This document shows, in pieces, positions 1 to 6,627 of a stretch of DNA of 6,627 bases. The first letter of the stretch is position 1, and each line of letters begins with the position of its first letter. The notes below the pieces were generated by a model. That model saw only the letters and a list, made by a program, of their open reading frames with translations. It was not told the DNA's origin and searched no databases. Source of the DNA: a virus (lineage: Duplodnaviria; Heunggongvirae; Uroviricota; Caudoviricetes); IMG/VR virus record IMGVR_UViG_2778261592_000001, positions 1 to 6,627 of that record; one strand, written 5' to 3'. The position numbers and the translations under genes were made by a program.

Positions 1-2054
1 TCGGTCAGAATGGCTGATTGTGCTTCCCGTGACTGTTTCAGCCACCACTTAATGGTGTCCCGATCGATGACTCCGCCTGCGGTTTCCAGATCGATAGTTT
101 TGCTGAATTCTGGCCCCATCTCTCCGGTTGCCGGATCAAAAAACTTACCGGCCAGAGCGTTTATTGGGGCATCAGGATTTTTGCCCATTGTTTCAAGGTT
201 AATCATCAGATGGTGCCACAACCTGCTGGTGGATGTGCTTTCACGATGACCGTTCACCTTAATTAAGGGATTTGCTGTCTCGCCACTTTCATTATCTGTG
301 GTGTGGTAGTGATCGCCGCCAGAGCCTTCCATTTCTTCCTGAGCTTCAGCCTGATTTTCTTCATCGAGTGTTTCCTGGTAGGTTGCGTTGCCCATCACCG
401 CGCCACAGTCAGGACAGTTGCCGCCACCGCTCTGACCGCAGGCGGTGCAGACTTTTTCCTCTTCCTGTTGCGCTACTGGTTCGGATTGTTTCGTTTCTGG
501 CTCGTCTTGTAACGCATTTTGGCTGTTTTGTTCTGCTTTCTGGTCGTTCTGTTCCGTTTCTTGCTGGTTCTGGTTCACAGAATCGCAGGTTTCAATCCCC
601 TTAACCCATTTCGGATCATTCGGGTCGCTAATCCCCTCAACAAATTCACCACGCGATACAGCAAGTAACTTATCGGCGTCAGGCTGGCTGATATTGGCTG
701 CCTGCATAATTTTGTTTACTTCGTCAGCGGTGACTTTTACTTGGTTAGCGGAACTCACCTGCGACTGAGCGTTCTGGCAATGTTCAGTTGTATCCGGTTC
801 CATTGTTTCAGTTGTTGCCTGTTCACCTGCCATTGCGTCAGATGGTTGTGGTTTTTCTTCTTCTGTTTCACGTTCAGTAACCACCTCGCGGTTAATTTCT
901 TCCAGGATATCTTTTTCCGGCGTATGCCGGGCAGCTGTGAGAGTTTCCTTGCTGGGGTTCTCGTGATCAGTTTCCGTCAAATAGGCGTTGATATACCCCT
1001 GAAGGCGTCCCGGGTAGTGATAAAATTCAGGGTGTGCGCTTCGGATAAGTGCAAAAATAGCGGCGCGGGAATAGTCCAGAATACCCGGGGTTGCACGAAG
1101 TGCTGCGGACCATTCTTTGAACGGACTTTCTTTTTTCAGGACTACTTCTTTTGCGCGACGATAAACGCTGCCCGGAATTTCATAAATATTAAAATCCATC
1201 GGAAGTGTGGCAGCTGCAATCTCCACATCCAGTGTGTCGAGGGTGTGTACTAAATTCGGATTGCGATCGGTTTTGTTCCCACCGCCAGCATTAGCACCGG
1301 AAGCCGTGCGGGTGATGCGTGAAACACGATTTCCTTTCATCCACTCTTTTGTCAGCAGACCTCGATCAGTGTAGTCAGCGTCCAGGTATGCTTCGAAAAA
1401 AGCAGTTATTAGTCCCAGGTCTGAATTACCCGGATTAGGGAAAACTTTGTCAGTGTCACGAACCAGTTTGTGGAGGTCGCGAATCTCCAGCGAGTCGAGC
1501 AGACTGGTTTTATGCGAAATAGCCAGGGCAGTAACAGCCGGTAGTTCTTCAGCCCGTGCAATGTGTAATGCCTGGAGTTCGTCGCGTGAAACGTGCGTTA
1601 CTGGTTTTTCGCTGCCGTGTTGAGCAAGCCAACGAATGGGCAATTCCTGACCGGAGACAGGCAGAAGCATGCTCTCCTCAATCTCAGTCATGTCTTCGCC
1701 GTTGATGTTGGTATTGTCAGTGCTGGCTGGTTTGTCCTGAACAGAGGGGGAAGGGCCGATAAATGTCATTGTGATGCCATCTTTCCCGCCTTTTTCATAG
1801 CGGTTGCAGAATTCAGTATCAAACACGCCTTCTGGCGGAAGGTCGTCAACAACGGGCAAATTGACGCGGACGGGTTTTTTAAAGTCGTCTTCATCATAAT
1901 CGTTGTCATCCATTGCAGTAATGCAGCGGGAGATTGCAACAGATAATTTTTTTGCTGTAGTCCAGTAAAAACCACCTTTAATTCCCAGGCGTTTTCTTAC
2001 TTTGTCATTTTTTGCTTCGCAATATAGTGCAAATTCTTCTTTATCAGTGCTCAT
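1..2054 (-). CDS. recE: RecE-like exonuclease VIII family protein, N-terminal 684 codons; C-terminus lies beyond the left edge
   Basis: Uninterrupted minus-strand reading frame from ATG at 2054 ([15 protein letters not shown]...) to position 1, hand-translated with no stop; not in the ORF track because it is edge-truncated. A long block ([85 protein letters not shown]) matches my recollection of the Rac prophage RecE N-terminal region. Sits directly downstream of ydfD, where K-12 has the ydfE fragment. Weak GAGG Shine-Dalgarno 14-17 nt upstream. Confidence 0.7.
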
Positions 2055-2147
2055 TATTGATAAACCTCATCACAGATTTAAGGGTGAACAAATCTCTGCC
2101 ATTGCTGACATATAAGAATGAAACTGGATATTTATTACGGTGCTGTT

Positions 2148-2336
2148 TTAAAATCCTGCCGGGATTTCGTTATCCTGGTGAATAACTTTATCGACCGGAT
2201 AACAGTTGCCTGGAATTTTCTGTTCGGTTGCTGCGGCCATACATTCCTGCATTGTTCTGTGAACACTGACTGCAATATCAACTGGCTCTCCGGAAACAAG
2301 AAAAACCGTCAGAATAAGTGCAAATGCTGAATTCAT
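2148..2336 (-). CDS. ydfD: YdfD-like small lysis protein with N-terminal hydrophobic segment (62 aa)
   Basis: MNSAFALILTVFLVSGEPVDIAVSVH... Start at 2336 has AAGGA 8 nt upstream and overlaps the dicB stop as ATGA. The longer track start at 2390 would overlap dicB by 58 nt. Position and size match ydfD of Qin (63 aa in K-12). Confidence 0.75.
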   Translation of the reverse strand: MNSAFALILTVFLVSGEPVDIAVSVHRTMQECMAAATEQKIPGNCYPVDKVIHQDNEIPAGF

Positions 2337-2521
2337 TGCGCACATCCTTTTGGCATCAGACGTAAACGAGCCAGCATTGAAACAATGCATATTTTATTTA
2401 ATAGCTCCCGTTCTTGTTTTCTCTTGTTAATGGCATCTTCAGTAAATACAGGGTTACTGATAGTGACACCAATTTCAAAACAACCTTCAGACGTATTAAC
2501 GTTTGGTAATAACGTTTTCAT
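2333..2521 (-). CDS. dicB: DicB cell-division inhibitor (MinC-activating), 62 aa
   Basis: MKTLLPNVNTSEGCFEIGVTISNPVFTEDAINKRKQERELLNKICIVSMLARLRLMPKGCAQ matches recalled DicB in sequence and length. GAGGA 7 nt upstream of ATG at 2521. Lies 175 nt downstream of DicF, as in K-12. Confidence 0.9.
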   Translation of the reverse strand: MKTLLPNVNTSEGCFEIGVTISNPVFTEDAINKRKQERELLNKICIVSMLARLRLMPKGCAQ

Positions 2522-2690
2522 TATCGCGTCCTCAACAATGAATTTTGTGATGCAGTGCCTGGTGCCTCCAGGTGACGTTAACCAGTTAACAATTAACGCC
2601 GGATACAGAGAATCCACCCATAACACTGTTTTTGGTTTTAACTGTTCCGCGTGCGCTCAGCCGCATTCACCACATCACAAAATTCACTTT

Positions 2691-2733
2691 AAAAAGGGCG
2701 GCAGAGCAGTCACGGAGTAAAACTGATACCGCC
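2691..2733 (-). terminator. Rho-independent terminator forming the DicF 3' end
   Basis: Minus-strand GGCGG (plus 2729-2733) pairs with CCGCC (within plus 2696-2701), followed by a five-U tract (plus 2691-2695). Confidence 0.6.
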
Positions 2734-2748
2734 AAACGTCACCAGAAA
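2696..2748 (-). ncRNA. dicF: DicF small regulatory RNA (53 nt)
   Basis: Minus-strand sequence UUUCUGGUGACGUUUGGCGGUAUCAGUUUUACUCCGUGACUGCUCUGCCGCCC followed by UUUUU (plus 2691-2695) matches recalled DicF exactly. 3' GC-rich stem (GGCGG/CCGCC) plus U-tract forms the intrinsic terminator. Confidence 0.85.
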
Positions 2749-3088
2749 ATTGATAACAGAAGGCGTTGCAGCGGGGTTGTCACTTAAGCGTATGGTCAAC
2801 CTGACAACCCGGTGTCCTCAACGGGGAAGAAATAACCCCTCCATACTTACCGCCGCACCATTTCGCGGGTTGCCACAACCGGAAGCGCACGGTCGACGAA
2901 AAGTTAACGACAGGCTATCTATGAACCAGCTACCTCGCCGTGCGCTTTCGCGTTATGGTCTGACTTTTCAGGGAAATATCCTTTCAGTAAACTGTCAGTG
3001 CCGGATGCTCACCCGCGTCCGGCGCACGCACTCCACCTCACCCGTGGAGAACTACTTAATTACCAACCTTAGCTTCGTTGGTTAGCTA

Positions 3089-3307
3089 TTAACGCGGGTA
3101 TGTAATCATTCTGGCAATGCTTAATGCCGCTGCTTTTTCCAGATTGGTGATATCCTGCTCCAGAGCGGACAGATTTTCAGCCTGCTTAGCCCTGGCTTCA
3201 TTGGCCCATTTCAGATCCTGCGCTGCATTAATTTTCTGGCGCATCCACTCATAAAGTTCATCATCGGTATAGTCTGGTGCGATGATGACGGGTTCTCGTT
3301 TCTGCAT
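3089..3307 (-). CDS. ydfC: YdfC-like hypothetical protein, predicted helical (72 aa)
   Basis: MQKREPVIIAPDYTDDELYEWMRQKINAAQDLKWANEARAKQAENLSALEQD... GAGGAA 5 nt upstream of the ATG. Position and length match ydfC in the Qin dicB operon. Confidence 0.8.
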   Translation of the reverse strand: MQKREPVIIAPDYTDDELYEWMRQKINAAQDLKWANEARAKQAENLSALEQDITNLEKAAALSIARMITYPR

Positions 3308-3336
3308 ACTGATTCCTCGCGGTGCTGTTTCGCTTA

Positions 3337-3465
3337 TCAGCCGTTAGATTTTGCCGAGCTGGAAAGCGCCTGTTTAAATTCGTTGAAGCTGAGAGCTTCT
3401 TCGCCGTCGGCAAGACCTTCGAAGTATTCTTCATAAGCCTTTTCCATGATTGTGTCGAAATCCAT
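3337..3465 (-). CDS. ydfB: YdfB-like small acidic protein (42 aa)
   Basis: Hand-translated MDFDTIMEKAYEEYFEGLADGEEALSFNEFKQALSSSAKSNG, ending in tandem stops TGATAA. ATG lies 1 nt after the ydfA stop (TGAtATG), with AGGTGAG upstream. Below the ORF-track size cut-off. Confidence 0.75.
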   Translation of the reverse strand: MDFDTIMEKAYEEYFEGLADGEEALSFNEFKQALSSSAKSNG

Positions 3466-3466
3466 A

Positions 3467-3622
3467 TCACTCACCTGAGTTTCTTTCCAGCCAGCGACGG
3501 GCACCATTTTCGGTTTTAAACGTTTTGCTTTTGGTATACGTCATCGCGGTGAACGTGCCGTCCTGGTTGGGGAACACGCCACATACCAGAGATTCGCTGT
3601 TGCCAAGATCGATAGTATCCAT
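3467..3622 (-). CDS. ydfA: YdfA-like small protein (51 aa)
   Basis: MDTIDLGNSESLVCGVFPNQDGTFTAMTYTKSKTFKTENGARRWLERNSGE. GAGGT 4-5 nt upstream of the ATG at 3622. The longer track ORF (start 3700) would begin inside the predicted promoter, so the internal start is preferred. Confidence 0.75.
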   Translation of the reverse strand: MDTIDLGNSESLVCGVFPNQDGTFTAMTYTKSKTFKTENGARRWLERNSGE

Positions 3623-3699
3623 GCTGACCTCATTTCCCCTTAACGCCGGGGTAGCGGAACTGTTTGCTGAGAACACCGTGCGGTGTCTTGATGCAAGCA

Positions 3700-3719
3700 A
3701 GATTAGCCATGACTAACAA
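3700..3719. promoter_or_regulatory. Operator-like imperfect palindrome, 16/20 match to the 20-bp site at 4246-4265
   Basis: agATTAGCCATGaCTAACAA; overlaps the -10 of the candidate operon promoter. Confidence 0.5.
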
Positions 3720-3728
3720 TTTGGTCAA
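3700..3728 (-). promoter_or_regulatory. Candidate sigma-70 promoter of the ydfABC-dicF-dicB-ydfD operon, overlapped by two operator palindromes
   Basis: Minus strand reads TTGACC (plus 3723-3728), 17-nt spacer, TAATCT (plus 3700-3705), about 80 nt upstream of the ydfA ATG. Confidence 0.5.
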
Positions 3729-3734
3729 GTATTT

Positions 3735-3754
3735 TTGTTTGCCATGGCTAACAT
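3735..3754. promoter_or_regulatory. Operator-like imperfect palindrome, 18/20 match to the 20-bp site at 4246-4265
   Basis: TTGTTtGCCATGGCTAACAt; centre lies 35 bp from the centre of the 3700-3719 site, just upstream of the -35. Confidence 0.55.
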
Positions 3755-3758
3755 TTTG

Positions 3759-3793
3759 GGCAGCCAAAAAGATAACGCATTGATTGCGTTATC
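3759..3793 (-). terminator. Candidate intrinsic terminator at the end of dicA
   Basis: Inverted repeat GATAACGCA (3771-3779) / TGCGTTATC (3785-3793) with 5-nt loop; the dicA stop codon lies in the stem. On the minus strand it is followed by TTTTT (plus 3766-3770). Confidence 0.45.
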
Positions 3794-4196
3794 TTTTGTT
3801 TGTTCGTTGACGGGCTTTTAATAACTCTTCAAAGAGTTTGTTGAAATTTTTTACTCGGGCGCGCATCTCGGTGAGCTGAGCATCCTGTTCTGATTCAGGC
3901 AATGCATTAAAAAGCTCAAGGAGCTCATGTTCTTTGGGGGATAGAGCAACTGGCTCCTCAATAGGTGGTGATGGCTGCTTGTCTTCATCGCCAAATAGAA
4001 TCCATGTTGGCGAGCACTGCAGTACTTTGCTGAGGGCAAAAAGATTCTTTCCTGTAGGTTCGCTATCATCCCGCTCCCATTGTGAAACCGATACGTGAGA
4101 AATTTTCAGGACTTTAGCAAGAGACCTTTGGGTGTATTTGAGGTTTTTTCGGCGATATCTAATGCGTTCGCCAATGGTTAAATTTTTTGTATCCAT
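3789..4196 (-). CDS. dicA: DicA, CI-like HTH (XRE family) prophage repressor, 135 aa
   Basis: MDTKNLTIGERIRYRRKNLKYTQRSLAKVLKISHVSVSQWERDDSEPTGKNLFALSKVLQCSPTWILFG... near-identical to recalled K-12 DicA. Divergent from the Cro-like gene. No obvious Shine-Dalgarno. Confidence 0.9.
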   Translation of the reverse strand: MDTKNLTIGERIRYRRKNLKYTQRSLAKVLKISHVSVSQWERDDSEPTGKNLFALSKVLQCSPTWILFGDEDKQPSPPIEEPVALSPKEHELLELFNALPESEQDAQLTEMRARVKNFNKLFEELLKARQRTNKR

Positions 4197-4218
4197 AGTT
4201 AGCTAATGCTAAATCTTA

Positions 4219-4247
4219 TTGACTATGTTTTTGTTAACATCTATTTT
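4219..4247 (+). promoter_or_regulatory. Candidate sigma-70 promoter for dicC
   Basis: TTGACT (4219-4224), 17-nt spacer, TATTTT (4242-4247); the 20-bp operator palindrome overlaps the -10 and the predicted transcription start. Confidence 0.5.
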
Positions 4248-4265
4248 GTTAGCCATGGCTAACAA
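4246..4265. promoter_or_regulatory. Perfect 20-bp palindromic operator, candidate DicA binding site
   Basis: TTGTTAGCCATGGCTAACAA is its own reverse complement. Located in the dicA-dicC intergenic region; two degenerate copies lie upstream of ydfA. Confidence 0.65.
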
Positions 4266-4279
4266 TTAAGGTGCTTTAA

Positions 4280-4510
4280 ATGCTTAAAACTGACGCACTT
4301 TTGTATTTCGGTTCAAAAACAAAACTTGCACAAGCTGCTGGTATTCGTTTGGCTTCGCTTTATAGCTGGAAAGGGGAGCTAGTACCTGAAGGTCGCGCGA
4401 TGCGCCTGCAAGAGGCATCCGGCGGGGAACTTCAGTACGACCCCAAAGTTTATGACGAATATCGTAAGGCAAAGCGGGCGGGGCGGTTGAACAATGAAAA
4501 TCACCCCTGA
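4280..4510 (+). CDS. dicC: DicC, Cro-like regulator, 76 aa
   Basis: MLKTDALLYFGSKTKLAQAAGIRLASLYSWKGELVPEGRAMRLQEASGGELQYDPKVYDEYRKAKRAGRLNNENHP matches recalled DicC. TAAGG 8 nt upstream of the ATG. Confidence 0.9.
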   Translation: MLKTDALLYFGSKTKLAQAAGIRLASLYSWKGELVPEGRAMRLQEASGGELQYDPKVYDEYRKAKRAGRLNNENHP

Positions 4511-5045
4511 ACAGGTTTGTGAGGCTCTGGATGCCTGGGTGTGCCGACCAGGAATGACACAGGAACAGGCGACGATATTAATCACGGAAGCATTCTGGGC
4601 TCTGAAAGAACGCCCGAACATCGATGTTCAACGCATCACGTTTAATGATGGCGAGGTTGATCAACGGGCACTGGGCGTTAACCGGGTGAAGATATTCGAA
4701 CGCTGGAAAGCTATCGACACCAGGGATAAGCGGAAAAAATTCACGGCGCTGATTCCGGCAATTATGGAGGCTATCCGAATTAGTGATTTCAGGTTGTATC
4801 GTGAGATCAGTGATGGAAAAAGCATTACGTACATGATCGCCGGATTAAACAAAGAATATGGCGATGTGGTGGAGTCCGGGCTGCTTTTTGCGGATCCATC
4901 TGTTGTGGAACGTGAGACTGACGAGCTTATAGAAAAAGCTATTGCTTTCAAGCATGCGTATCGTCAGCAGTATCAATATTACTTTGCAGATAAACAAATA
5001 TCTGCCAGGGGTTCGTATGAGTATCGATGCACTACGATGGGCTAA
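4494..5045 (+). CDS. YdaT-like (CII-analog family) protein, 183 aa; intact counterpart of the K-12 ydfX remnant
   Basis: Complete ORF starting 17 nt before the dicC stop. Begins MKI... and has the motif KFTALIPAIMEAI, resembling the KLIPAILAIL region I recall in Rac YdaT. Same position (after the cro-like gene) as ydaT in Rac-type prophages. Family assignment is from memory only. Confidence 0.55.
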   Translation: MKITPEQVCEALDAWVCRPGMTQEQATILITEAFWALKERPNIDVQRITFNDGEVDQRALGVNRVKIFERWKAIDTRDKRKKFTALIPAIMEAIRISDFRLYREISDGKSITYMIAGLNKEYGDVVESGLLFADPSVVERETDELIEKAIAFKHAYRQQYQYYFADKQISARGSYEYRCTTMG

Positions 5046-6057
5046 AAAGGTGAAAACCGGCAGTTCATCCAGTAAGTCTGTATTGACCTGGCTTGCTGAT
5101 ATGTGCGGTGCCGATTTGTGTGCATACCCGTCTGTATCTGCACTGGCAGAAGTAACGGAACTGAACAAAAAGACTGTGCAGGACAGCTTACGACACCTGA
5201 TGGAGATTGGGTTAATTGTTGATACCGGTGAGAGAAAAGGCAGAACAAAGCAAATTGTGGTGTACCGACTTATCGGTGTAGAAGAAAGTGTTGCCGAGCC
5301 TGAATACACCCAAAAACGGGTGTCTTTAAAGGTGGGTAAAATTGGTGCTGTTAATAAAAACAGTACCGAAAACGGTTATGTTTCAGCACAAAAGAGCCCC
5401 AAAAACGGAACTCTTTGTTGCATGGAAAATAACCAAAGACACCCAAATTTTCCATCAAAGACACCCAAAAACGGATCACGGAACCCAAAGGAACCCAAAG
5501 ATCTAAACCCCACACATAACGCACACGAGAGTGCTCCGATCAGTGAGCAGGAAGTTTTGTCGTTACAGGCAGCCCCCCATGTATTCCTGGATGGCCTGAG
5601 CGAACCCATCGGAAAATTTCCGATGACCGATAGCTGGTATCCGTCACGGGATTTTCGACGACGGGCTGCGTTGTGGGGGATGGCTTTGCCGGAGACAGAA
5701 TTTACACCTGCTGAACTTACCGCATTCCGGGACTACTGGGCAGCGGAGGGGAAAGTGTTTACGCAGATTCAGTGGGAGCAGAAATTCGCCCGTCACGTAA
5801 ATCACGTCAGGGCGCAGGTTAAACCAGTCAGCAAGGGGGTAAACCATGCAGCAGCACCAGGTGGCACCGCATCACGGGCAGTTCAGGAAATTCGGGCAGC
5901 ACGTGAGCAGTGGGAACGTGAAAACGGATTTATCAGCGACGGAAACGGCCTGGAAGCTGTGGGAACTCATGGGGGAGGTTTATTCGAACCGCTGGACCCA
6001 GAAGAACGGGGCCGCACCTTCGAAGCTCTGGATTGCACAGATTGGCGCGATGACTGA
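5017..6057 (+). CDS. Phage replication initiation protein: winged-helix N-terminal domain, low-complexity linker, DnaT-like C-terminal domain (346 aa from chosen start)
   Basis: Start ATG 5017 (MSIDALRWAKKV...) has AGGGG 5 nt upstream and overlaps the upstream gene by 29 nt; the track ORF start at 4942 would overlap by 104 nt. C-terminal segment (WYPSRDFRRRAALWGMALPETEFTPAELTAFRDYWAAEGKVFTQIQWEQKFARHV) resembles DnaT-like ssDNA-binding domains. Occupies the lambda O position upstream of a P-like gene. Confidence 0.7.
   Translation: MSIDALRWAKKVKTGSSSSKSVLTWLADMCGADLCAYPSVSALAEVTELNKKTVQDSLRHLMEIGLIVDTGERKGRTKQIVVYRLIGVEESVAEPEYTQKRVSLKVGKIGAVNKNSTENGYVSAQKSPKNGTLCCMENNQRHPNFPSKTPKNGSRNPKEPKDLNPTHNAHESAPISEQEVLSLQAAPHVFLDGLSEPIGKFPMTDSWYPSRDFRRRAALWGMALPETEFTPAELTAFRDYWAAEGKVFTQIQWEQKFARHVNHVRAQVKPVSKGVNHAAAPGGTASRAVQEIRAAREQWERENGFISDGNGLEAVGTHGGGLFEPLDPEERGRTFEALDCTDWRDD
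5397..5500. repeat. Iteron-like direct repeats (ACCCAAA core), candidate replication origin inside the initiator gene
   Basis: CAAAGACACCCAAA at 5434-5447 and 5456-5469 (22-bp spacing); CCCAAAAACGGA at 5398-5409 and 5464-5475 (66-bp spacing); tandem GGAACCCAAA at 5480-5489 and 5490-5499. A moderately AT-rich stretch lies just upstream (5350-5395). Confidence 0.5.
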
Positions 6058-6511
6058 GCAGCAAATCCGGCAGGTCTGCCGCCAGTGCATGGACCGCTGC
6101 CGGGCGGGTGAAACATGGCCTCCGGACCTGGCTGAGTTTGTGGCGCTGATTTCGGAAAGCGGGGCCAATCCATTTGGCCTGACGGTGGATGCTGTGATGG
6201 AGGAGTATCGCCGCTGGCGTAATGAGTCCTGGCGATATAACGGAAGCGACAAATATCCGTGGCCTCAGCCTGTGCTGTATCACATTTGCCTCGAGATGCG
6301 TTCAAAGGGGATTGAACGCCAGATGACCGAAGGGGAATTAAAACGGCTTGCAGAACGGCAGCTGACGAAATGGGCAAAGCATGTTAGTAACGGCCTGAGC
6401 GTTCCGCCAGTACGGCGACAACTGGCGGCACCAAAACGCCCGTTGGGACCAACGCCAATTGAGTTGCTGAAACAGGAGTATGAACGCCGGAAAGCGGCTG
6501 GTTTTGTCTGA
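6050..6511 (+). CDS. Lambda P-like replication protein (DnaB helicase loader family); start uncertain, in-frame alternatives at 5969 and 5846
   Basis: Resembles recalled lambda P: AMTEQQIRQVCRQ..ETWPPDLAEFVALI vs ITTMEQVNAGMRVARRQ..PFLPSPGQFVAWC, and YPWPQPVLYH..TEGELKRLAERQ vs YPWKSNAHYW..TDAELRRKAADE. ATG 6050 overlaps the upstream stop as ATGACTGA. The frame is open from 5846, which has AAGGGGG 6 nt upstream and would give 221 aa. Confidence 0.7.
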   Translation: MTEQQIRQVCRQCMDRCRAGETWPPDLAEFVALISESGANPFGLTVDAVMEEYRRWRNESWRYNGSDKYPWPQPVLYHICLEMRSKGIERQMTEGELKRLAERQLTKWAKHVSNGLSVPPVRRQLAAPKRPLGPTPIELLKQEYERRKAAGFV

Positions 6512-6545
6512 TTTGAGAAGTAATTTTTATCCGGAGGAAATTTTA

Positions 6546-6627
6546 ATGGGAACCGTATTGCATGCACTGAAAGCGATGGGTAAAGCCAATTCTGTTGAAC
6601 TGGCGGCGCGGCTTGATATCAGCCGTG
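6546..6627 (+). CDS. Hypothetical protein, 5' fragment only (27 codons in window), possibly Ren-like
   Basis: ATG 6546 preceded by GGAGGAAA with 7-nt spacer; frame open to the window end (MGTVLHALKAMGKANSVELAARLDISR...). Loose resemblance to lambda Ren N-terminus; too short to classify. Confidence 0.45.
   Translation, partial: MGTVLHALKAMGKANSVELAARLDISR

Follow-up and report, generated by a model that had tools for sequence, protein, structure and literature searches.

What lies between ydfC and DicF in the early operon of a Qin-like prophage? DicF is among the oldest known bacterial small RNAs (sRNAs), and the dicBF operon is a model for the effects of cryptic prophages on their host. We approached the question in a stretch of 6,627 nt from a virus of the Caudoviricetes (IMG/VR record IMGVR_UViG_2778261592_000001, positions 1 to 6,627; this whole stretch is called the window). 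Read on the minus strand, its prophage immunity region carries dicA (3789–4196), the promoter dicBp, ydfA, ydfB, ydfC, DicF, and dicB, in that order. The interval of interest, 2749–3088, is the body of the DicF precursor and not DicF itself. It holds a portable, discrete, covarying and pseudoknotted RNA domain that is polymorphic among prophages, being either present or absent. The domain is absent from Rfam and was not found described in the accessible literature, a scope that stops short of the P1 genome paper and of Faubladier 1990 and 1994. Taken as a whole, the interval is very probably the untranslated 5' part of the DicF precursor, consisting of mosaic hairpins, an RNase III hairpin, and the autonomously folding pseudoknotted domain of 115 nt. 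A sequence-only reading of the window had described the interval as structured, untranslated RNA; the modular domain, its pseudoknot, and its presence outside Qin are new beyond that reading.

Copies of the domain were collected by scanning viral contigs, together with a single genome for each species, for sequence patterns. This gave 74 distinct sequences, aligned with MAFFT (alignment A3), and 78 after a model search. A4 designates the covariance-model alignment and R1 the covariance model of the domain. The elements of the fold are listed here; P0 to P3 are helices, and the phage is always called phage P1.

2765–2879, minus strand: core conserved RNA domain of 115 nt, a junction of four helices with P0 as its closing helix and a 9-bp pseudoknot that locks it.
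2872–2879, minus strand: 5' strand of P0 (the GGUUGUGG region), pairing with 2765–2772; A3 columns 4–11 with 116–123, 93.6% paired.
2853–2868, minus strand: P1 hairpin, CCGCG (2868–2864), loop AAAUGG, and UGCGG/CGCGG (2857–2853), 95.7% paired.
2851–2849 (GGU) and 2846–2841 (GUAUGG), minus strand: 5' strand of the pseudoknot, pairing with 2795–2787 in the P3 loop.
2822–2840, minus strand: P2 hairpin, (A/C)GGGG (2840–2836), a pyrimidine-rich loop, and CCCCG (2826–2822); three of five pairs compensatory in A4.
2774–2810, minus strand: P3 hairpin, a 9-bp stem of 2810–2802 with 2782–2774; both sides changed at six of nine pairs.

Overall, 96.4% of the A3 cells were paired, and none of 500 shuffles reached the observed values. 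When the 3' partner was slid by 1–3 columns as a control, 28–53% of cells were paired. Fourteen of the 27 nested pairs in A4 had changed on both sides. The exchanges seen in P0 were U-G, U-A and G-U, G-C, and the G-U wobbles indicate that the minus strand is the one that folds. P1 was the weakest helix, with one-sided (wobble) changes only and no compensatory pair. At the P2 position we found at least nine different stem sequences, each folding as a hairpin (among them CGGGG/CCCCG, CUGGG/CCCAG, CUGGGGU/GCUCCAG, CCAGGUG/CACCUG, CCCGGG/CCCGGG, CAGGG/CCCUG, and GGGGU/ACCCC). The sequence-only reading had singled out two stems, one of 9 bp and one of 10 bp, and an inverted-repeat search located both on the minus strand where they had been placed. 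The first (repeat I3, 2774–2782 with 2802–2810) has arms of 9 nt that are 100% complementary and 19 nt apart. It is P3, and comparison across prophages revealed compensatory changes that keep it; variants include GUUGCCA/UGGCAAC in phages P1 and P7, GGGUAACCA/UGGUUACCC in locus L213, and GGGUCGUCA/UGACAGCCC in L036. Its 19-nt loop (2801–2783) is near-invariant, GGUUGACCAUACGCYURAG, and contains the 3' strand of the pseudoknot (2795–2787). The nine pseudoknot pairs were 99.5% paired, with one U-A to C-G change in phage P1-type copies and two one-sided changes. RNAalifold, applied to the MAFFT alignment and blind to the proposed model, also chose the pseudoknot helix. Because the search patterns fixed most of the 3' strand of the pseudoknot and part of its 5' strand, the invariance of these positions partly reflects how the copies were collected; helices outside the patterns were unconstrained.

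The fold was also probed thermodynamically. The 406 nt from 2690 to 3095 folded at −157.5 kcal/mol, compared with −134.1 ± 6.5 kcal/mol for shuffled sequences (z = −3.6; none of 100 shuffles was as good), and the 194-nt stretch corresponding to the "long DicF" gave z = −1.96 on its own. The decisive support for structure is comparative, not thermodynamic. A within-family diversity profile for purifying selection was uninformative, the Qin-type copies being too alike. A second, local pseudoknot between UCCUU of the P2 loop and GAGGA of the P2–P3 linker was dropped as a general feature: it exists in the Qin and L042 types and is absent from the phage P1, L063, L196, and L203 types. One copy of the phage P1 type, on the P1-like contig L020 (4668–4811), has an insertion of ∼25 nt in P2, composed of a G-run and a partial duplication, and nevertheless reaches 79 bits with the model, in keeping with P2 as a tolerant, variable arm.

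Known RNA families did not account for the domain. Against the region 2740–3100, Rfam 15 returned no family near its gathering score; the best matches had E = 0.9–3.4 and included DnaX (14.4 bits against 35 required) and c4-a1b1 (11.3 bits against 46.7), the latter score leading us to reject a C4/c4-a1b1 identity. The domain itself gave no match at E ≤ 10, whether in the window or in its P7 copy. A likeness of the P3 loop to helix III of 5S rRNA, seen by eye, was dropped since no 5S family was among the E ≤ 10 matches in the interval. ARAGORN found no tRNA or tRNA-like genes in 2600–3100.

It is highly improbable that the interval is something other than an RNA element, that is, a protein-coding sequence on either strand, a DNA-level site, or a neutral insertion. 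The domain does act as a present-or-absent insertion, and the plus strand has an open reading frame (ORF) of 111 aa at 2750–3085. The only minus-strand ORF of at least 30 aa between the ydfC stop and DicF is one of 36 aa with a GTG start (2780–2890). However, homologous copies carry 1-nt and 4-nt indels within P2 (A3), inside both ORFs, the longest antisense frame shifts from variant to variant, and the 111-aa ORF had no Pfam match. Coding on either strand was rejected on these grounds, in agreement with the earlier judgment that no credible ORF lies here. Beyond coding, the G-U wobbles and compensatory changes fit minus-strand RNA only, and the sequence is conserved across lambdoid and P1-like phages. 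In some genomes, RefSeq and its Prokaryotic Genome Annotation Pipeline (PGAP) annotate a 54-aa antisense "hypothetical protein" (WP_001331716.1; L002 3236–3400, minus strand, corresponding to window 2921–3085, plus strand). Judged from the sequences, this is probably a spurious call, as its frame is not conserved among the homologous copies. Whatever the domain does, it corrects spurious antisense protein annotations of this kind in RefSeq genomes and is a candidate new Rfam family.

A search of phage records revealed that 2765–2879 is conserved alone in phages sharing nothing else with Qin: cdtI, Ayreon, 2H10, Stx2c phages, Salmonella F1055, and P7; a further phage, recorded from Actinobacillus, also carries this segment by itself. 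In cdtI, 2H10, F1055, the Stx2c phages, and P7/P1, the domain has unrelated flanks. Genuine matches in genomes came almost exclusively from Enterobacterales (E. coli, E. albertii, E. ruysiae, Shigella, Citrobacter, Trabulsiella, Erwinia tracheiphila, and Serratia symbiotica). The wider stretch 2600–3320 was matched in 4383 of 5426 complete E. coli genomes and was at least 80% covered in 3007 of these. Three metagenome-assembled genomes, L175, L178, and L195 (labelled Bacillota, Veillonella parvula, and Collinsella), hold near-identical E. coli or phage P1-type copies; the most likely cause is mis-binning of enterobacterial or phage contigs, not carriage by these organisms as true hosts.

The domain was either present or cleanly absent. 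Among 132 loci with DicF-flanking sequence, 101 had the core by a pattern test, and in ∼27 the sequence GGUUGU-AAAUA-ACGAC stood in its place; in these core-less sister prophages this is P0 capped by a pentaloop. The same non-coding region, along with a DicF-like terminator, occurs in an N-encoding Stx1c phage, from which exactly the core is missing, and L229 represents an independent precise deletion. Natural "minus" alleles are available for comparison with domain-bearing prophages. In the core-less loci L216, L224, and relatives, a different upstream module, ACCACCGAAGCCCGGAGGUGGUGAAAUAAAACCGGGC, lies ∼150–200 nt upstream of the DicF-like terminator; its ACCACC/GGUGGU and GCCCGG/CCGGGC pairings interleave like a classical H-type pseudoknot.

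In the Qin-like setting, the domain is part of a precursor whose ends have been mapped. The features that define this precursor in the window, with its promoter, are the following.

2880–2950, minus strand: RNase III processing hairpin with arms 2950–2938 and 2892–2880, containing a 10-bp stem (2947–2938 with 2892–2883); repeat I1 and the mapped published cut.
2748–2764, minus strand: spacer between P0 and DicF, GCCUUCUGUUAUCAAU, with the AU-rich site where RNase E makes the DicF 5' end.
2695–2747, minus strand: DicF sRNA (Rfam RF00039 match at 2696–2747, 76.7 bits, E = 3.7e-16), whose hairpin is an intrinsic terminator.
3728–3723 and 3705–3700, minus strand: promoter dicBp, −35 TTGACC and −10 TAATCT, respectively.

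The 5' end of DicF at 2747 was taken from the Rfam match; RF00039, a 52-nt covariance model with a threshold of 48 bits, had no match inside 2749–3088 even at E ≤ 10. DicF forms the 3' part of a 190-nt RNA, so that it lies outside the interval yet belongs to the same unit. The 190-nt species is seen on Northern blots and accumulates in stationary phase; it is lost without RNase III and rises upon RNase E inactivation (Ragunathan et al., 2023, PMC10448788). RNase III generates its 5' end by cleaving the transcript between nucleotides 813 and 814, in confirmation of Faubladier 1990, and the 53-nt DicF is made by RNase E (PMC10448788). The excision of DicF by these two enzymes, which the sequence-only reading had noted, agrees with this published work; the route is established in the literature and not new. 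Counted from the dicBp transcription start that we place at 3694–3692, transcript position 813 corresponds to window 2882–2880, and counting back 190 nt from the DicF 3' end leads to 2882–2884. Both counts reach the base of the hairpin 3' arm, at ∼2879–2884, so the 10-bp stem coincides with the published RNase III site; the cleavage is taken from the literature, and only the coordinates were computed here. RNase III would cut at the hairpin base, 1–4 nt ahead of P0, and the published 190-nt "long DicF" would consist of the domain, the 17-nt spacer, and DicF, with its 3' end at the DicF terminator. A subsequent RNase E cut in the spacer would release the 53-nt DicF and, by inference, a structured 5' fragment of ∼135 nt.

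This is the same molecule as the long DicF precursor of Faubladier et al. (1990) and PMC10448788, with its RNase III 5' end at the 2880–2950 hairpin, its 3' end at the DicF terminator, and RNase E trimming to 53 nt. In the accessible literature it is a precursor defined by its ends; no fold, pseudoknot, covariation, or modular spread was found described for its 5' 135 nt in a search that did not extend to Faubladier 1990 and 1994. Most of the 190-nt DicF, these 135 nt, is a discrete covarying pseudoknotted module common to phage P1 and many prophages of E. coli, Shigella, Citrobacter, Erwinia, and Serratia.

The 10-bp stem sits in repeat I1 (2880–2892 with 2938–2950), whose 13-nt arms are 92% complementary; 45 nt are enclosed by the perfect 10 bp. 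It is kept in prophages with and without the core domain, including those with a different upstream module, and one compensatory A-U to G-C exchange, read by eye, distinguishes two prophage classes (AAAGCGCA/UGCGCUUC against AAGGCGCA/UGCGCCUC). The sequence-only reading had suggested that both stems were processing determinants. This holds for the 10-bp stem; the 9-bp stem has no shown processing role and is helix P3. The contig L018 (IMG/VR), compared with window 2867–2955, has a natural deletion between the direct repeats AACGCGAAA (2955–2947) and CCGCGAAA (2867–2860), which takes out the RNase III hairpin and the P0 5' strand and keeps the remainder of the domain.

These positions raise the possibility that the structures serve processing and stability only, directing RNase III and RNase E and protecting the precursor 5' end, with no role beyond DicF maturation. 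The 10-bp stem has the RNase III site at its base; P0 starts 1–4 nt from the new 5' end, so the monophosphorylated end would be nearly buried; and the RNase E site is 16 nt past P0, in a predicted hairpin with the DicF seed, where GUUAUCA of the spacer pairs with UGGUGAC of DicF. We nevertheless regard this explanation as unlikely. In sister prophages a plain P0 pentaloop hairpin holds the same position, and the extra 95 nt are therefore not needed for a processing role. The domain is conserved in P1/P7, where initiation makes the 5' end and no DicF seed follows, and in cdtI-type phages the terminator comes just ∼10 nt after P0. Near-invariant unpaired nucleotides and a 9-bp pseudoknot also exceed what a nuclease guide needs.

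The feature that accompanies the domain everywhere is a terminator-like hairpin. In all 20 sequence classes inspected, a canonical GC-rich hairpin followed by U5–7 lies downstream of the domain, and the sequence of this hairpin differs by class. It is DicF in Qin and GCCCAUCUUCGGGUGGGC-U6 in phage P1, and the U-tract is 46–141 nt past the pseudoknot. A lax automatic terminator test was passed by 144 of 144 loci, compared with 41% of random positions. The fixed arrangement of domain, hairpin, and U-tract indicates that the conserved unit is domain plus terminator. This unit measures ∼190 nt in Qin after the RNase III cut and ∼180 nt in phage P1 from initiation. It is always within a repressor-controlled early operon, co-oriented with it, and downstream of cI or dicA. 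In P1/P7 the domain heads the ban operon and begins ∼36 nt downstream of the Pban start; in cdtI it begins ∼285 nt after a near-consensus pL-like promoter (TTGACA-16-CATAAT), ahead of early-left genes ending with excisionase. Behind the terminator, lambdoid prophages have dicB/kil, recombination, and excision genes, and phage P1 has tRNAs and ban. The record of phage P1 (NC_005856) contains a "dicF-like region" at 68791–68892, just downstream of P1ban, which spans P3 and the terminator of the phage P1 copy. The label shows that homology between the phage P1 and Qin dicF regions had already been noticed. The annotated region starts within the domain, omitting the P1 hairpin, the 5' strand of the pseudoknot, and P2, and the record gives no structure or function; it was named for DicF, though the likeness is mainly in the upstream domain and not in the DicF sRNA.

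Several terminators have features of their own. In L006, L166, L196, L203, and L213, which are non-E. coli enterobacterial prophages, the terminator hairpin is 60–70 nt long and encloses a Shine-Dalgarno-like CCAGGAGG...GAUAAUGUUCU, such that a short ORF may start inside the stem. Just past the leader terminator of P7, a segment (L003 3137–3250) resembles sequences in ∼250 Klebsiella, Salmonella, and Escherichia phage records and gives weak Rfam matches to families like transfer-messenger RNA (21.5 bits, E = 0.036). In cdtI (L004), a perfect inverted repeat of ∼15 bp, ACAAAACAGAGAAGA/UCUUCUCUGUUUUGU (3166–3182 with 3247–3263), directly follows the terminator and is a second candidate RNase III site.

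We favor the reading that the domain acts in cis and controls read-through of the adjacent intrinsic terminator, and give it a probability of about 40%. As we envisage it, a portable leader module would fold on leaving RNA polymerase and govern read-through of the terminator just downstream. Control could be constitutive, by binding to the elongation complex as for the HK022 put RNA and the Bacillus EAR RNA, or could depend on a ligand or a host factor; expression past the terminator would then need no N-type protein, and the near-invariant unpaired and pseudoknot nucleotides would form the recognition surface. This reading is favored because the genes behind the terminator (dicB/kil, recombination and excision genes, tRNAs, ban) must be expressed, and because the only strong sense-strand terminator of the phage P1 ban operon is the leader terminator following the domain. 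In addition, the invariant unpaired nucleotides suggest that a conserved host machine recognizes them. In P1 bac-1 lysogens, Ban is expressed from Pban while all other lytic functions are repressed, and dicBp, when derepressed or replaced by Plac, yields DicB, so that read-through in bac-1 P1 lysogens and in the defective Qin prophage needs no other phage protein.

The distribution of N proteins is a further reason for preferring cis control. With two N families as queries, none of 82 element-bearing loci matched lambda N or Stx-type N, whereas the Stx1c positive control matched PF25694 (N_peptide). YdfA, YdfB, YdfC, and their neighbors are not N-like; the upstream small proteins are DUF1391 or of unknown function. 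Conversely, none of 80 loci encoding a Stx-type N carried the element, and the five of these with a DicF-like region have P0 only. The domain occupies the same map position as nutL and tL1 in the lambda nutL/N/tL1 system, past the repressor gene and the early-left promoter and before the first terminator and the kil and recombination genes. Unlike lambda, the element-bearing loci lack a boxB-like 15-nt hairpin as well as an N gene (lambda and Stx-type queries). A boxA-like UGCUCU(U/C)U occurs just upstream of P0 in non-Qin lineages only. The 5' arm of the cdtI inverted repeat is also complementary to the boxA-like GUGCUCU... upstream of P0. Since the post-terminator segment of cdtI pairs locally in a perfect hairpin, the boxA resemblance is ambiguous. 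A long-range helix between the boxA-like sequence and post-terminator sequence, at ∼2 standard deviations over shuffles, was not adopted, given this perfect local pairing.

Two RNAs that act without a dedicated protein offer the closest functional comparison. The putL and putR elements of HK022 are cis-acting processive antiterminators that suppress termination without further factors by binding the zinc-binding domain of the polymerase β' subunit. They resemble the domain in being structured RNAs of an N-less lambdoid phage that lie in its early operon, ahead of terminators that have to be passed, with no dedicated protein encoded. They differ in architecture: put is ∼70 nt, with two stem-loops and a triplex, and is present in two copies, one for each early promoter (pL, pR), whereas the domain is 115 nt, with four helices and a pseudoknot, and occurs as a single copy in the complete cdtI genome and at every locus searched. 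Homology to put was rejected, as only the run GCGCGGCGG is in common and R1, run against the HK022 immunity region (L009), gave no match at E ≤ 1. The eps-associated RNA (EAR) of Bacillales is a structured RNA of ∼120 nt that acts inside an operon as a processive antiterminator for downstream intrinsic terminators. It resembles the Qin domain in being placed between genes of an operon, as the domain is between ydfC and dicB, and differs in phylum, in fold, and in not standing next to one particular terminator. EAR is in Rfam and had no match here at E ≤ 10.

Several observations weigh against cis control of read-through. Some 20 N-less prophages, some with a 98%-identical DicA, share the DicF-like terminator and the downstream genes without the domain, which is therefore not generally required for read-through. 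The anticorrelation with N rests on few closely related lineages and two N families, with the N-encoding loci drawn from one close lineage; given that the ∼20 element-less loci also lack N, we rejected it as proof of antitermination and retain it as weak support only. There is no sequence or structural similarity to put. No conserved alternative pairing of the antiterminator/terminator kind was found across 20 lineages. The phage P1 ban operon has a single leader terminator, not several, and an attenuator or a plain sRNA gene would fit it equally. Finally, the unit has an RNase III site on either side, and a stable RNA of 190 nt accumulates in stationary phase, for which a stand-alone RNA is an equally good explanation. 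The stronger proposal, in which the domain would represent a new structural class of RNA that brings about antitermination or read-through independently of protein, put-like in function with an unrelated fold, is doubtful. If it is correct, N-less lambdoid prophages and P1-like phages pass the guard terminator of the early operon by means of the domain, which would gate DicB/Kil-type division inhibitors, recombination and excision genes, and the P1 Ban helicase. Read-through control by the domain would be only the second phage case of RNA-only antitermination and would account for passage of the leader terminator in N-less lambdoid phages and in the P1 ban operon.

A pseudoknotted core with a closing helix, followed directly by an intrinsic terminator, is a layout that would also suit a ligand-sensing riboswitch or attenuator in which occupancy of an aptamer decides whether the terminator forms. 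The 3' strand of P0, CCACAAC, indeed has an alternative downstream partner in several lineages (e.g., CAACA...UGUUG or CCACA...UGUGUG). However, this alternative hairpin does not overlap the terminator, terminator sequences vary by lineage while the domain shows no corresponding changes, no metabolic theme links the genes that follow, and there was no match to an Rfam riboswitch at E ≤ 10; a riboswitch is thus quite improbable. In the single-sequence fold of the 190 nt, the P1–P2 linker, which contains the 5' strand of the pseudoknot, pairs with the 3' arm of DicF. This pairing scores z = −3.2 in the variant of the window and near zero elsewhere. A switch between domain and terminator was set aside because the complementarity of the linker to the terminator is at shuffle level across 20 lineages, except in the window's variant.

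The main rival to cis control, which we hold tentatively, is a stand-alone RNA of ∼180–190 nt with the domain as its functional 5' body, a "long DicF family" that would act in trans or bound to protein and for which the terminator is simply the 3' end. The partner could be a chaperone, a nuclease, polymerase, or a defence or counter-defence factor, and the variable stretch between P0 and the terminator would carry lineage-specific seeds such as DicF. The Northern blots point in this direction, with a 190-nt RNA that accumulates in stationary phase and rises upon RNase E inactivation (PMC10448788). In phage P1, start and terminator would yield nearly the same size and layout with no processing. 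The Qin unit is flanked by RNase III-type duplexes at 2880–2950 and 2690–2675/2555–2540, the cdtI unit has its 15-bp hairpin right after the terminator, and invariant loop nucleotides suggest a specific partner. On the other side, no target or partner is known, the pseudoknot largely uses up the conserved residues of the P3 loop, and the domain is optional among otherwise homologous prophages. It is also never an isolated gene, being always in an early operon with co-oriented genes behind it. Were the domain the body of a trans-acting RNA, DicF would have been studied so far without most of its molecule. The sequence-only reading had suggested a second stable RNA or a cis-regulatory structure in the segment; the 115-nt covarying domain bears out that a discrete element is there, and control of read-through in cis remains the function that we prefer for it.

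The remaining features of the operon in the window are as follows.

3467–3622, minus strand: ydfA.
3337–3465, minus strand: ydfB.
3089–3307, minus strand: ydfC.
2951–3088, minus strand: upstream non-coding stretch with several local hairpins (minimum free energy fold; one repeat, I5).
2333–2521, minus strand: dicB.

The annotation is the same in K-12 and its closest relative. Hairpins in the upstream stretch are CUCCAC/GUGGAG (3049–3044 with 3036–3031), GCCGGA/UCCGGC (3023–3018 with 3005–3000), and CUGAC/GUCAG (2998–2994 with 2964–2960). The stretch is a mosaic between prophages, with BLAST matches ending at differing points within it; it is ∼80% conserved in the Stx1c phage, and other prophages carry a different upstream module. 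The Aeromonas phage AP1 (254 kb) contains, at 249892–249974, 83 nt that are 94% identical to DicF and the adjoining upstream spacer, without the domain. The dicB 5' leader (2489–2698, minus strand) gave a sub-threshold match to the Rfam family STnc100 (34.4 bits against a gathering score of 47, E = 9e-5). This match holds a long duplex of AGUGAAUUUUGUGAUG (∼2690–2675) with CAUCACAAAAUUCAU (∼2555–2540), which is likely the RNase III substrate behind the published 3' end of the 72-nt DicF.

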